From a virus (lineage: Duplodnaviria > Heunggongvirae > Uroviricota > Caudoviricetes), in the IMG/VR virus record IMGVR_UViG_3300042535_000037, positions 100,031 to 164,030 of that record: a stretch of 64,000 nucleotides of DNA. One strand, written 5' to 3'. A model generated the notes under the pieces. That model saw only the letters and a list, made by a program, of their open reading frames with translations, did not search any database and was not told the DNA's origin. Shown piece after piece: positions 3,604 to 12,209 of the stretch. The position numbers and the translations under genes are program-made. The number at the start of each line of letters is the position of its first letter. The first letter of the stretch is position 1.

Positions 3604-3771
3604 GTAGCCAAGTGGTTTAATCTGGGAAAACGCCCTTTTAGAGACTTCAACATGTACTGCTTGCGGAGATGGTGTACAACGTCAATGCATGAAACATGGC
3701 GCGGGGAGAAATCCACCGCTTGAGAGTAACGAACTCATTGGGAGATTGCAGTTCGAATCTGCCAAGCTACC
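3604..3771 (+). ncRNA. tRNA-like RNA with a 104-nt structured insert in the anticodon arm
   Basis: GTAGC/GCTAC acceptor, D-arm GTTT/AAAC, CCC/GGG, T-arm GCAG-TTCGAAT-CTGC; the insert has its own helices and a GAAA tetraloop. Confidence 0.65.
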
Positions 3772-3773
3772 TA

Positions 3774-3887
3774 CAACATCTATTACTTCTTGGAGAAGTT
3801 CTAAGGTGAGGCGATGTAGTTCGAATCTACTGCCTGCTTGGTTCGATTCCGAAGTGGGTCTGGCGACATATCCTTAGATAGATGTTG
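3774..3887 (+). ncRNA. multibranch RNA with two T-loop hairpins
   Basis: Perfect 10-bp closing stem CAACATCTAT/ATAGATGTTG; TCTAAGG/CCTTAGA; loops TTCGAAT (3830-3836) and TTCGATT (3842-3848). Confidence 0.7.
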
Positions 3888-3920
3888 GAAGTGAGGAACC
3901 CACCCTTCCTCACACACAAT

Positions 3921-4050
3921 GGGCTTGAGGCGATATCAGGTAACGCACTCAAGTAAAGTGCTCTCAGAATGTAACGGAGATACGTAGCGAAATTACATGT
4001 CTGTTAGTAACTACATGCAGAAAGAGTTGGTTCGAATCCACCCCTGCCCA
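3921..4050 (+). ncRNA. tRNA-like RNA with expanded anticodon domain and weak acceptor stem
   Basis: GGGC/GCCC acceptor ends, D-arm GCG-ATATCAGGTAA-CGC, T-arm TGG-TTCGAAT-CCA. Confidence 0.55.
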
Positions 4051-4089
4051 TCCATTACTTTTTTATACATAAACCACCATTGTTATATC

Positions 4090-4416
4090 ATGAAAATTAA
4101 CATAGGAATAATTTTTTACAACGTAGACATTCCACTTAATGTACAATCTCATCTTTGTACAGCAATAGTACAAAATTTAGCTTGTAAAGCTGTACAAAAG
4201 GTCATAGAGTTAGAAAACATTTCACAAGTAGCTCTTTCATCAGCCATCACTATGAATATTAACTATAGTGGCATTGATTGTGTAAAAAACATCATAAACT
4301 TGGAAATTATATCAAATTTAAATACAAGCATACCCATCGATGAACGCATAACTTCACAGGTAAACAAATTAATTCTTAATAATACGAACGCTAACTATGA
4401 AATAATAGTTATTTAA
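4090..4416 (+). CDS. hypothetical protein (start corrected)
   Basis: TTTTTATA about 23 nt upstream of ATG 4090. Confidence 0.65.
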   Translation: MKINIGIIFYNVDIPLNVQSHLCTAIVQNLACKAVQKVIELENISQVALSSAITMNINYSGIDCVKNIINLEIISNLNTSIPIDERITSQVNKLILNNTNANYEIIVI

Positions 4417-4461
4417 AAAATCAATGACATAGCTGAAGAAGTAAAAAATAGGTGTTAAACC

Positions 4462-4713
4462 ATGTTCCTCATTACAAAAGACCTTATCAACACTGACCCA
4501 TTTGAGCCTACTTGCATAGGCGTAACCTCTTCAGACTACATCCTAGATACCGACCTACCCTACCAATTCCGTATCCTCGATGGAGACAAAGAAGTCTACT
4601 TTTACGGTCTATCAGATGACAACTCATCCTTTGACCCACTAGATAATCTTGGTACTGCTTTCGGCTGCACCTCAATCGAATACCTTGAAAATGGAGAATG
4701 GAAGGAACTATAA
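4462..4713 (+). CDS. conserved phage-type hypothetical protein
   Basis: F.ILDGD..VYFYG...FDPLD..G..FGCT.IEY..GEW pattern recalled from phage proteins; GGTG SD. Confidence 0.7.
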   Translation: MFLITKDLINTDPFEPTCIGVTSSDYILDTDLPYQFRILDGDKEVYFYGLSDDNSSFDPLDNLGTAFGCTSIEYLENGEWKEL

Positions 4714-4733
4714 TTGTGCCTAAAGGTGACATC

Positions 4734-9518: not shown

Positions 9519-9947
9519 GTAATTAAGTCCATTTACTTCTTGTCTTTTTCTATAAAAATCATTTACAATAAACATGAAAAACCTTCTTTCTTGGTCATTA
9601 TGTCTACCCCATTCTATTCCCATATTCATTCTTGGCATTTCCTCTTTAATTACCATCATTAAGTTATCTCTTTCTACCTGACCCATTACATCTTTAATCT
9701 TTCCTTCATAAACATTTCTTGCAAATTCCATATCTCCTATTGTGGTTTTTACTTCATAGTCATTAATTCCTCTATCCTTCAGAATTCCCAAGAACTCAAC
9801 CTTCATTCCCTTCTCTCTAACACCATCCATTTTTCTCATTATCATAAAATATGGCTTACCACCATTCTTTTTTCCATTAACTACCTTAACATATACAACT
9901 CTAGTTCCATCAAAAGCTTTCATACATTTAACTATCAACCTGACCAT
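9513..9947 (-). CDS. hypothetical basic protein
   Basis: Long ORF; shares a central TATA with the gene at 9996. Confidence 0.7.
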   Translation of the reverse strand: MVRLIVKCMKAFDGTRVVYVKVVNGKKNGGKPYFMIMRKMDGVREKGMKVEFLGILKDRGINDYEVKTTIGDMEFARNVYEGKIKDVMGQVERDNLMMVIKEEMPRMNMGIEWGRHNDQERRFFMFIVNDFYRKRQEVNGLNYL

Positions 9948-9995
9948 ATAAATCTTTCCACAATCAATATATACAAGAAAAAACTATATACAATC

Positions 9996-10163
9996 ATGAG
10001 TTTCTTCGGAATCTTCCTATCAATAGTAGGCATAATTTTAGCCTATGGCTCCGTCATCATTTACTCTCAAGGATACATAATTTTACCACTAATCCTCATC
10101 ATATCAGACATCTTCCTGCTTCGCTATTTATTCAAAAACTTTGAAGAACTTAAAAAATTATGA
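9996..10163 (+). CDS. small 2-TM membrane protein, 55 aa (not in ORF track)
   Basis: MSFFGIFLSIVGIILAYGSVIIY..IILPLILIISDIFLLRY; ATGA overlap with the ferredoxin. Confidence 0.65.
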   Translation: MSFFGIFLSIVGIILAYGSVIIYSQGYIILPLILIISDIFLLRYLFKNFEELKKL

Positions 10164-10318
10164 AAGTAAACTCCAAGTGTGTAGGTTGCGCCCACTGTGT
10201 AACCTTTTGTCCATTCGATGCAATTCGAGTAAAAGGTAAAGCCTCTTTTACTTCATCTTGTACTAATTGCGGGAAATGCCTCAAATATTGTCCAATGAAA
10301 GCCATAGAAAAAACTTAA
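10160..10318 (+). CDS. 2[4Fe-4S] ferredoxin, 52 aa (not in ORF track)
   Basis: MKVNSKCVGCAHCVTFCPFDAI...CTNCGKCLKYCPMKAI: two CxxCxxCxxxCP motifs. Confidence 0.92.
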   Translation: MKVNSKCVGCAHCVTFCPFDAIRVKGKASFTSSCTNCGKCLKYCPMKAIEKT

Positions 10319-10342
10319 ATACCTTCCCACCTTCTTTCTTTC

Positions 10343-10627
10343 ATGGCAAAAGACAATTTCATAAAAACCATCTGGTTAAGCGTTGATGTTAGGAACATAT
10401 CACCTATGGCAGATAGCGAGTTTGCTCATAAACTCGAATTCCTAGAAGATACAAACAGAATTAACTATAAAATATACCCATTCCACAAAACGGGTGCTAA
10501 GAATAGCTATGTAAAGGTTGAGGTCAACTCAAATCATTACAATGAAGTAATGAAAGACCTTAAATATTATACAAATTACGAAGCCATTAAAATTCTTTCC
10601 GCAAAACCCGCTTCAATCAAGGACTAA
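10343..10627 (+). CDS. hypothetical protein
   Basis: TTAAATA plus pyrimidine tract, leaderless start. Confidence 0.7.
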   Translation: MAKDNFIKTIWLSVDVRNISPMADSEFAHKLEFLEDTNRINYKIYPFHKTGAKNSYVKVEVNSNHYNEVMKDLKYYTNYEAIKILSAKPASIKD

Positions 10628-10710
10628 ACCTTTCCAAAAGTCAATGAATTGAATCATTGACCCATTACTTTTTTATACATTGAGCACCTTTATATCTTTG
10701 GTGACTTAAA

Positions 10711-10923
10711 TTGTCGAAGATTGTAGTTATAGAATCCTGTGAATCTAGCAGGATTGCAGCATTTACATCACTAGAAGCATTTAGAAAGTGGTGGACATCT
10801 AAGGGATATACATTTAGCCACTTCAAGACAGTAGGACTATTTAAGACATTCTTCTCATACATGATAATTAATGAAGAAGAAGATGAATCATACGATGTCA
10901 AGTTCATAGACATAATGGAGTAA
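10711..10923 (+). CDS. small hypothetical protein
   Basis: GGTGA SD, TTG start; directly upstream of cca. Confidence 0.6.
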   Translation: MSKIVVIESCESSRIAAFTSLEAFRKWWTSKGYTFSHFKTVGLFKTFFSYMIINEEEDESYDVKFIDIME

Positions 10924-10925
10924 AC

Positions 10926-12209
10926 ATGCTTCTCTCAGAAATTCTTATGCGTACCCAAGGTTACATCGTAGGTGGAGCAATCCGCAATCGTATCCTTAAT
11001 CTCCCCATCTCCGATTACGACATAGTAACACCCTTCACTCCTGAAGAGCTCAAGAACATGCTTCCCATAGCTTATGAACTCGGAGAGAGATTTGGTACAG
11101 TAATAGTCAACACAGACGTAGGCTTGGTAGAAATCACAACTATGCGTAAAGATATTTCTTCAGGTCGTCATCCTAAAGTAGAATTTACAACATCTCTTCT
11201 AGAAGACCTTTCTCGTAGAGACTTCACCATGAACTCTATCGCTGAAGATGTCCTAGGCAAACGCTACGACCCCTACAATGGAATATCAGACATCCAGAAC
11301 CGTCTAATTCGTTGCGTTGGTAATCCAGTAACCCGTATCTCTGAAGACAAGCTACGCGCCCTTCGAGCAATCCGTTTTTCATCTCAACTAAACTTCCGTA
11401 TAGACTCCCATCTTTCCAGAGTCCTATCTTACACGGACCTCGACATTGGAAATGCTGAAATAATAATAGATGAAGATGGGTACAAGCTTGCACAGGGTCT
11501 CTCCATAGAACGTGTAATGGATGAATTTCAAAAGATGCTTCTTTACAATCCAGTAAAATCTCTTGAATCCCTCAGCTTTTACAATCTCCTTCCTCAGTTC
11601 CTACCAGAAGTCCACTCATACAAAAACTTCCCTCACAACCCTCTCCACCACAAGGGCAACCTCTGGCAACACGTAATGGAAATGCTTTCCCTTGCTCCCA
11701 AGGAATTCACCCTACAACTTTGCATCATTTTCCATGATGTAGGAAAAATAGAAACTCAGAATGGTACAACCTACTACAATCATGACCAAGTAGGAGCCTC
11801 AATGATACCATCAATCGCATCGCGCCTCAAGCTTTCCACCTTCAACAAAGAAGCAATTCAATTTGTCTGTGCTAACCACATGAAGCTTCACAATATCCAG
11901 CAGATGCGCTCTGGTAAACGCCAATCCCTATATAATTCTCCTTACTGGTACTATCTCTATGAAACCCACAAACTAGACGAACTTCGTGACACATCTACCA
12001 TCGACTTTATAGAATCCGACCTTTCCCAAATCCAAAAGGTCAAACCTCTAGTCAATGGTCACGATGTTATGGCTCTGGGAGTCACAGGGAAGCCCATAGC
12101 AACCATTTTGGAGACCATGCTTAATCTTCAACTTGACGGTAACATAACTTCAAGGGAGCAAGCCCTCGCGCTACTTTCAGACATAATAGGTGAAATGAAT
12201 GACAACTGA
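10926..12209 (+). CDS. cca: class II (bacterial-type) tRNA nucleotidyltransferase / CCA-adding enzyme with HD domain
   Basis: YIVGGAIRN..DYDIVT (motif A), TMRKD..GRHPKVEF loop, DLSRRDFTMN, EDKLRALRAIRF, and IFHDVGK (HD). Confidence 0.92.
   Translation: MLLSEILMRTQGYIVGGAIRNRILNLPISDYDIVTPFTPEELKNMLPIAYELGERFGTVIVNTDVGLVEITTMRKDISSGRHPKVEFTTSLLEDLSRRDFTMNSIAEDVLGKRYDPYNGISDIQNRLIRCVGNPVTRISEDKLRALRAIRFSSQLNFRIDSHLSRVLSYTDLDIGNAEIIIDEDGYKLAQGLSIERVMDEFQKMLLYNPVKSLESLSFYNLLPQFLPEVHSYKNFPHNPLHHKGNLWQHVMEMLSLAPKEFTLQLCIIFHDVGKIETQNGTTYYNHDQVGASMIPSIASRLKLSTFNKEAIQFVCANHMKLHNIQQMRSGKRQSLYNSPYWYYLYETHKLDELRDTSTIDFIESDLSQIQKVKPLVNGHDVMALGVTGKPIATILETMLNLQLDGNITSREQALALLSDIIGEMNDN

Follow-up and report, generated by a model that had tools for sequence, protein, structure and literature searches.

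The window analysed here, 64,000 nucleotides (nt) of a Caudoviricetes genome deposited as IMG/VR virus record IMGVR_UViG_3300042535_000037, contains at positions 3604-8923 what we predict to be three promoter-driven, protein-free RNA operons, in which five tRNA-like modules (c1 to c5) are arranged together with other structured RNAs. As judged from their sequences, the modules are non-decoding, unspliced tRNA-like RNAs and closest to the "t-elements" of other systems: a tRNA-like fold with an acceptor/T-arm minihelix is combined with a lack of decoding and with a position inside a longer predicted transcript. We propose that they are virus-encoded t-elements, signals for cutting and stabilisation that the host's tRNA-processing enzymes would read, a tentative reading to which we give somewhat less than an even chance. 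The complete record comprises 183,084 bp with a 127-bp terminal direct repeat, and the window corresponds to its bases 100031-164030; comparison with the source DNA assembly, in the form of contigs, revealed no variants. The + strand carries nearly all genes, and all RNA features described below lie on it; positions are those of the window unless the genome is named.

An ATG at a fixed distance of 28-29 nt behind the promoter is the signature of archaeal leaderless mRNAs. Across the whole genome, the motif TT[TA]TATAC is strongly strand-biased, with 86 copies on the + strand against 17 on the - strand. Exactly 28-29 nt after the motif start, 35 copies have the ATG of an open reading frame (ORF) of at least 40 codons. 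Most genes are therefore leaderless, and because these 35 leaderless ATGs share the same spacing, the transcript start can be set at +28/29. A second gene group has its ATG at +36 to +40, behind a GGTGAT-type ribosome-binding site. The motifs at 3575, 6667 and 8599 have no ORF behind them. The promoter of operon 1 (TTTTTATAC, 3575-3583) predicts a start at G3604 (3603-3604), which is the first base of module c1, while the promoters of operon 2 (6667-6675) and operon 3 (8599-8607) predict starts at G6696 and G8629, the first bases of the closing stems of two leader RNAs. ORFs listed across the operon stretches are artefacts of upstream starts; the gene behind module c2 has its ATG 29 nt after a promoter at 4061. 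Operon 1 is closed by a T6 run (4057-4063) that overlaps this next promoter. The same kind of end, a T-run overlapping the next promoter, is seen in the only ordinary tRNA gene of the genome, a tRNA-Asn located 58 kb from the three RNA operons, and in a further tRNA-like element at genome positions 52974-53121. Within the operons, the modules are packed with 0-7 nt between their closing stems. Promoter spacing and tight module spacing thus agree with a preliminary description of this DNA, which had suggested that the tRNA-like RNAs are co-transcribed with structured RNAs of other kinds.

The derivation of the modules from tRNA appears real and beyond chance, although it is uneven among the modules. 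A T-arm had been claimed for all five, and a canonical T-loop hairpin (G53-TTCGANN-C61) is indeed present at each place. In the 183-kb genome, TTCGA-type T-arm hairpins with a 4-5 bp stem occur ten times on the + strand and never on the - strand, compared with a mean of 0.17 and a maximum of 2 in block-shuffled genomes. Seven of the ten are located within 3752-8903 and nine lie inside ORF-free promoter-driven units. For a more stringent comparison we used a tRNA-frame descriptor consisting of a 7-bp acceptor stem, 2 nt, a D hairpin with GG, 1 nt, a 5-bp anticodon stem that may enclose 6-130 nt, 4-6 nt and a 5-bp T stem. On the + strand it matches tRNA-Asn and c3 only, and shuffled genomes average 0.03 matches; c4 fails solely by one D-stem mismatch and a G-G pair topping the anticodon stem. 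After the top-scoring single deletion, ARAGORN scores of 107.6 for c3 and 108.8 for c4 are reached, within the range of 102-121 of ordinary phage tRNAs in the compared contigs. The stacking of acceptor and T stem together with a TTCRANY loop and a D-loop GG is found in c3 and c4 and partly in c1, c2 and c5. The earlier statement that all modules keep T-arm, D-arm and acceptor pairing thus holds fully for c3 and c4 (7/7 acceptor and 5/5 T-stem pairs) but not for c1 and c2, with 5/7 acceptor and 4/5 T-stem pairs each, or for c5 with 4/7 acceptor pairs. Three other features described previously could be reproduced throughout. No module has a normal 7-nt anticodon loop, the surplus being 28 nt in c3 and c4 and about 26-100 nt elsewhere; U8, reported as missing from several, is lost, position 8 being A or G in all five; and CCA is not encoded, the trailers after N73 reading TAC, TCC, TCG, TTG and AAC.

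Operon 1 begins with c1 (3604-3771), a degenerate tRNA-like RNA whose terminal stem has 5 bp (GUAGC/GCUAC) and which also contains a D-like hairpin (GUUU-AAUCUGGGA-AAAC) and, as T-arm, GCAG-UUCGAAU-CUGC; a branched structure of ~104 nt lies between these elements, and the top single-deletion ARAGORN score is 103. It is followed by module x (3774-3887), in which a 10-bp closing stem CAACAUCUAU/AUAGAUGUUG surrounds two T-arm hairpins, at 3820 and 3842, with the T-loops UUCGAAU and UUCGAUU. The first of these T-arms, together with the sequence 3' of it, is similar to the 3' portion of c2. Between x and c2 stands an 8-bp hairpin GUGAGGAA-CCCACCC-UUCCUCAC (3891-3913). Module c2 (3920-4050) is again degenerate, with the terminal pairs UGGGC/GCCCA, a long 5' hairpin (CUUGAG-GCG, a loop with GG, CGC-A-CUCAAG), a middle domain and the T-arm GUUGG-UUCGAAU-CCACC.

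In operon 2, leader RNA 2 (6696-6793), closed by the 10-bp stem GUACGCAGCC/GGCUGCGUAC, precedes c3 (6800-6897), which has a complete tRNA frame with the acceptor stem GGGUGUG/CAUACCC, A8 and G9, the D hairpin GCG-AAUGGAA-CGC, the variable loop AAAAA, the T-arm UCAGG-UUCGAAC-CCUGA and A73. Its anticodon stem CACGA/UCGUG encloses 35 nt (6828-6862) that form a 2-bp stem extension and a 5-bp helix. Two hairpins behind c3 (6899-6990; weak, with a fold z-score of only -0.3) may be downstream products of the operon. Operon 3 is built alike from leader RNA 3 (8629-8708; 10-bp closing stem GUACGUGACC/GGUCACGUAC), a paralogue of leader 2, and the near-complete frame c4 (8714-8815). The latter has the acceptor stem GUACAGU/GCUGUAC, G8 and G9, a D arm UGGC-AUAGGUAA-GACA (3/4 pairs), the variable loop GGAAC, the T-arm UACAG-UUCGAGU-CUGUG and A73. 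The anticodon stem of c4, (C)UGAG(G)/(G)CUCA(G), encloses 35 nt with a GAAA-capped 3-bp hairpin or a 10-bp hairpin; an alternative fold has a 6-nt loop. Without any spacer, c4 is followed by c5 (8816-8923), the next promoter lying at 8933. This degenerate module has either an in-register acceptor stem with the four pairs mentioned or a 6-bp stem UUGUGU/ACACAA offset by 3 nt (GAU) from the T-arm, as well as a hairpin ACUGG-17 nt with GGG-CCAGU; its T-arm, CUUGG-UUCGACU-CCAAG, is perfect. The element at genome 52974-53121, 47 kb before the window, provides a third intact frame, with the acceptor stem AUCCCAC/GUGGGAU, A8 and A9, a 5-bp D hairpin with GG, 75 nt within the anticodon stem, a variable hairpin and the T-arm CUUGG-UUCAAUU-CCAAG.

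None of these RNAs looks capable of decoding. With default threshold, with or without introns, ARAGORN finds zero tRNAs in the window, and at lowered thresholds it returns hundreds of spurious calls. Rfam yields no match at the gathering threshold or at E<=10 for the whole window or its sub-regions; a weak tRNA match of c2 (3978-4050) reaches 10.9 bits, the gathering threshold of RF00005 being 29 bits. The previously noted lack of a clean splice motif is borne out by an exhaustive scan of the three operons for the bulge-helix-bulge (BHB) motif hBHBh', defined as two 3-nt bulges either side of a 4-bp helix, which gave no case with both sites in an anticodon arm. At the 37/38 splice option of c4, checked by hand, three of the four central-helix pairs form, and the inner helix amounts to 1 bp. 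A BHB-shaped arrangement around the whole of c4 (8707-8823; central helix CAAT/ATTG, bulges AGA and TGT, the acceptor stem as inner helix) was dismissed as probable chance, as its outer helix has 2 bp and c3 has no counterpart; it also overlaps the leader stem by one base. The viral genome contains no gene for a splicing endonuclease (EndA) or for RtcB. In c3 and the 52974 element, a 7-nt loop with U33 and R37 cannot be produced by any single excision, and c2 and c5 remain silent in ARAGORN after every single deletion. In c4, deletion of 8753-8780 produces an ARAGORN "tRNA-Stop(UUA)", and every acceptable excision gives the same anticodon, UUA, matching UAA, the stop codon that this virus uses most. 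Recoding of stop codons, which might have lent such a tRNA a purpose, was considered and rejected: readthrough of TAA merely fuses neighbouring genes, and under the standard code stop-to-stop frames of at least 100 codons on both strands cover 87% of the bases. Because there is no tRNA call, no BHB motif, no usable excision and no EndA or RtcB, we regard the modules as non-decoding. The anticodon-like heptamers formerly reported from the loops do not alter this picture, since their number (2-8) is that expected by chance (1.5-5.8 in shuffled inserts), and the "heptamer" CTCAAGT of c2 supplies the 3' half of an uninterrupted 6-bp helix whose other half is CTTGAG, part of the putative acceptor.

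Folding energies and paralogy were considered as signs of selection, with z-scores calculated from 200 shuffles. Leader 2 (z -4.3), module x (z -2.9) and the hairpin 3891-3913 (z -3.3) are strongly structured, 0/200 shuffles being as stable in each case. When leaders 2 and 3 are aligned, the first 16 and the last ~14 nt are common to both, and their closing stem is kept through three double compensatory changes (CAG/CUG versus UGA/UCA). All seven hairpins have an intact T-loop, and two of the acceptor stems are free of mismatches. The close packing of the modules, their raised GC content and the A8 or G8 common to all of them point in the same direction. Several points thus tentatively favour a function of the operons as a whole. 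The description of the inserts as "cargo" finds no counterpart in the data, as they have no common sequence, fold or recognisable motif; they contain no C/D boxes and match no Rfam family. A MAFFT alignment of c3 and c4 likewise reveals no recognisable sequence homology, and between the operons and the rest of the viral genome there is no complementarity or repeat beyond a 14-nt T-arm common to c3 and tRNA-Asn.

Downstream of the operons, at 10926-12209 (+), the window encodes a protein of 427 amino acids (aa) that was correctly recognised in the preliminary description as a class II tRNA nucleotidyltransferase of the CCA-adding type. It contains the PolyA_pol head (PF01743, 3.6e-25), PolyA_pol_RNAbd and an HD phosphohydrolase domain. 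Its closest solved relatives are the bacterial CCA-adding enzymes 6ibp and 1miv (4.6e-30), and alignment with 6ibp identifies the motifs GGAIRN, DxD (DYDIV), RRDFTMN and EDKLRALR. Among NCBIfam models, CCA equivalogs match best, all below their cut-off (182 versus 290 bits), and pcnB matches too; full CCA addition by the viral enzyme is likely. The genome also encodes Pth2 and a kinase-phosphatase-RNA ligase, and the three genes together resemble a phage-style tRNA maintenance set. Neither a reverse transcriptase nor Ro60/TROVE (PF05731) nor DUF2828 (PF11443) was found in the viral genome. The suggested coupling of the RNAs to the CCA enzyme is circumstantial and rests on proximity only. In distant viral contigs, homologous CCA genes adjoin ordinary tRNAs (11 in L005, 4 in L009 and 2 in L024), and because such arrays exist, a CCA gene beside tRNA-type genes is a common arrangement rather than a special system. 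We take the enzyme, found here with Pth2, the ligase and one real tRNA-Asn, to be an ordinary phage-type tRNA maintenance gene and not a demonstrated dedicated partner of the RNAs. The probable ancestor of the present modules is a tRNA array of phage style that came with the CCA gene.

The best homologue of the CCA enzyme among 5.8 billion proteins has 40% identity and is encoded on a 202.5-kb metagenomic contig. This contig shares at least 11 genes with the virus at 29-51% identity and in scrambled order, including those for the CCA enzyme, the kinase-phosphatase-ligase, Pth2, a dCMP deaminase and a HATPase protein; a UvrD-type helicase is called on it too. The relative also encodes a DUF2828/DUF7788 protein and a TnpB gene (L072:5654-7066, L069:5534-6739), the latter directly upstream of the kinase-phosphatase-ligase. 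Among viral contigs, no close relative was found for the CCA protein, for PolB or for a 274-aa neighbour, and the leader motif GTACGNNNCCAATAATNAA has 42 chance matches, none of them with a closing stem. The 274-aa protein (7458-8282, - strand) is encoded between RNA operons 2 and 3; it is an orphan with an HExxH motif and a precomputed match to PF07737 (metalloprotease-type), and finds only itself in the 5.8-billion protein set.

Besides the family B DNA polymerase and the CCA gene set, the genome encodes a ribonucleotide reductase and large disaggregatase-domain proteins. The nearest homologues of the disaggregatase-domain protein come from Methanomethylovorans (45-47% identity), followed by Methanosarcina. 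In 185 + strand ORFs of at least 100 codons, TAA is the stop codon in 113, TGA in 63 and TAG in 9 cases; such scarcity of TAG would be expected if UAG encodes pyrrolysine in the host. Due to the disaggregatase homologues and the rarity of TAG stops, we assign the element to the large viruses of Methanosarcinaceae-type methanogens. The GC content of the genome is 36.6% and that of the RNA modules 41-53%. The tRNA-Asn is preceded by a structured 64-nt leader, has U8, does not encode CCA and scores 61.2 bits with RF00005 and 110.7 in ARAGORN. Further ORF-free units were noticed in the window. One promoter-driven unit (37857-37968) consists of a leader closed by GCUAAC/GUUAGC and a degenerate tRNA-like module (37901-37968) in which 5/7 acceptor pairs form, the T-arm reads GGGGG-UUCGACU-CCCCT and a 5-bp "anticodon" stem is capped by a 10-nt loop. 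Two others behind consensus promoters (18164-18325 and 39065-39260) contain several GC-rich hairpins each and have no counterpart in Rfam.

Established recognition features of RNase P, tRNase Z and CCA enzymes are the acceptor/T-arm stack, the T-loop, the GG of the D-loop, an unpaired N73 and a non-CCA trailer; none of the three needs the anticodon arm. All of these features have been kept here, the acceptor/T stack with 12 bp. In c3, c4 and the 52974 element the frame is full and the anticodon loop is replaced by a structured segment of 35-73 nt. We infer cleavage, tailing and a role of the released RNAs as follows. Host RNase P would cut 5' of each intact tRNA-like module and tRNase Z after N73, which would free the stem-closed neighbours (leaders, module x, trailing hairpins) as well as the tRNA-like RNAs themselves. 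A CCA enzyme, either the host class I or the viral class II enzyme, could then tail the freed RNAs, and the anticodon region, being dispensable for these enzymes, would be free to expand. In this scheme c3 and c4 would punctuate operons 2 and 3, whereas c1, c2, c5 and the double T-arm module x would be more diverged derivatives of the same stock. The initial idea of a tRNA body acting as a scaffold for processing is thereby retained in part: non-decoding tRNA shapes do occur in promoter-driven operons with the enzyme-recognised parts kept, but only two of the five frames are intact.

A number of observations weigh against the proposed punctuation by t-elements. The terminal stems of c1, c2 and c5 are mismatched or offset, and such modules may be poor substrates of RNase P and tRNase Z and would look like decay. 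Fold z-scores do not set the tRNA-like modules apart, ranging from -1.8 to +0.6 (the latter for c5). RNase P is not needed for c1 because this module begins at the predicted transcript start, and the leaders do not prove cargo because the real tRNA-Asn has a structured leader too. Moreover, the virus is an orphan whose nearest relative has only ~40% protein identity, and in 59 kb of the 202.5-kb relative, ~30 kb either side of its CCA gene, there is no tRNA, no T-arm hairpin and no convincing frame.

Some of these points are equally expected if the modules are decaying remnants of a viral tRNA array, that is, pseudo-tRNAs without a function of their own in transcription units that are kept on other grounds or still await deletion. 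Such decay, which we judge unlikely but well worth considering, would explain the 4-5/7 acceptor pairs of c1, c2 and c5 (T-stem pairs being counted as 4/5), the general loss of U8, the inserts with nothing in common and the partial copies in module x (T-arm with 3' flank) that resemble the 3' part of c2. The normal tRNA arrays of the distant contigs with a CCA gene suggest the ancestral state, and the nearest relative is without such genes near its CCA gene. Neutral change should, however, scatter small mutations, whereas the damage found here is concentrated in the anticodon arm, where a large structured segment replaces the loop, and the T-loops are untouched. The promoters with their exact spacing have also been maintained, the GC content of the modules is well above the genome average, the adjacent non-tRNA modules are strongly structured and show compensatory changes, and a compact genome with 87% coverage retains ~1.2 kb of such material. 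A different origin of the surplus nucleotides would be unconventional introns in real tRNA genes, taken out by host or viral enzymes before the tRNAs decode, for instance in an ochre-suppressor or a Lys/Gln-type tRNA encoded by c4. The identical surplus of exactly 28 nt in c3 and c4 would be in line with this, as would the perfect anticodon arm (6-bp stem, loop CUUUAAC, ARAGORN 108.8) that c4 acquires without 8753-8780 and the presence of a heal-and-seal RNA ligase in the virus. Introns in tRNAs of archaeal viruses are known, e.g. a predicted 5-nt intron in a tRNA of HFTV1 (bioRxiv 10.64898/2026.09.13.751334). Nevertheless, a BHB motif is absent at every insert, viral EndA and RtcB are missing, and neither c3 nor the 52974 element can be restored to a U33/R37 loop by one excision. 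The tRNA from c4 would read the commonest stop in a genome without recoding, c1, c2 and c5 give no acceptable or only a marginal tRNA after one deletion, and U8 is absent, so that we consider introns very improbable.

The mimics could also be the actual product. Processed and CCA-tailed, they might serve as decoys or sponges that occupy tRNA-binding or tRNA-attacking proteins of the host and thereby protect the tRNA pool, which would in addition be repaired by the viral ligase, Pth2 and CCA/HD enzyme. Candidate targets would be defence nucleases acting on tRNA and tRNA-modifying or tRNA-binding factors. The elbow and the acceptor end of tRNA are retained in the mimics, the virus possesses a gene set in the style of tRNA repair (CCA/HD enzyme, Pth2, kinase-phosphatase-RNA ligase), and several copies with strong promoters of their own would raise the RNA dose. 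On the other hand, the repair genes are tied to the RNAs only by the common genome, no target or partner was identified, and the absence of Ro60/TROVE and DUF2828 genes argues against a role like that of Y RNAs. Anticodon nucleases, the targets envisaged in the preliminary description, need the anticodon stem-loop, which is the very part destroyed here, and the heptamers on which that idea was based occur at chance frequency. We therefore consider decoys rather improbable. A related and similarly improbable reading is that of CCA-tailed, non-decoding mimics whose enlarged anticodon arms are functional payloads. They would then be natural "tRNA scaffolds", matured by the viral, bacterial-type CCA/HD enzyme rather than by the host class I enzyme, and would display structured RNA domains or sequester host factors, whether tRNA-directed defences or proteins that bind tRNA.

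If the modules do act as t-elements, an archaeal virus would punctuate its own non-coding RNA operons by means of the tRNA-processing machinery of its host. For punctuation by tRNA-like structures there is precedent in plant mitochondria, in a herpesvirus and in one archaeal rRNA operon; to our knowledge, it has not been described for viruses of archaea. The proposal would also imply a handful of virus-made small RNAs, namely leaders 2 and 3, module x and the tRNA mimics, for which methanogen cultures could be searched. The modules further illustrate how a viral tRNA array may fare when selection for decoding has ceased.

Several known systems resemble the operons in part. Intron-containing pre-tRNAs of archaea, cut by EndA and joined by RtcB, share the archaeal context, the interruption of the frame in the anticodon arm and the lack of an encoded CCA, but in the viral modules there is no BHB motif, no rescue of c3 by excision and no U8, and the intron mode of ARAGORN is silent at its default threshold. 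The tRNA-maintenance islands of phages and haloviruses likewise combine a class II CCA gene, Pth2 and RNA ligase on a large viral genome; their neighbours are ordinary tRNAs, whereas here deviant tRNA-like modules take that place and the single ordinary tRNA is distant. Y RNAs of the YrlA type, bound by Ro60/Rsr, are also non-decoding RNAs with tRNA-like T and D arms, occur near RNA repair genes and are found in phages too. In contrast to them, the present RNAs have neither a TROVE/Ro60 or DUF2828 gene in the genome nor an Rfam YrlA match, and their ends lie in an acceptor stem and not in a Ro-binding stem.

The tRNA-miRNA-encoded RNAs (TMERs) of murine herpesvirus MHV68 consist of a tRNA-like part and pre-miRNA hairpins and are cut by tRNase Z. 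Like MALAT1-mascRNA, they are eukaryotic (pol III or pol II transcripts) with known products, and the tRNA-like product can receive CCA. In both systems a tRNA-like module is co-transcribed with structured RNAs and separated from them by tRNA-processing enzymes, as is proposed here; their anticodon arms are small or normal, however, and the flanking RNAs of the virus belong to no recognised class. The closest parallel is provided by the t-elements. In Haloferax volcanii, tRNase Z cleaves a natural tRNA-like t-element that precedes the 5S rRNA (PMC4326828, citing Hölzle 2008 and 2012), and an RNA with a t-element on either side is set free in vivo through RNase P and tRNase Z (PMC4326828). Transcripts of plant mitochondria use t-elements likewise (PMC1920247). 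The modules described here differ in being virus-encoded and in occurring several per protein-free operon, and in two of them the full four-arm frame is kept, a large structured segment taking the place of the anticodon loop. In common with t-elements, they are non-decoding tRNA shapes within longer predicted transcripts that keep the acceptor and T-arm read by RNase P and tRNase Z and would define the ends of their neighbours, and their host domain, Archaea, is that of the Haloferax case.

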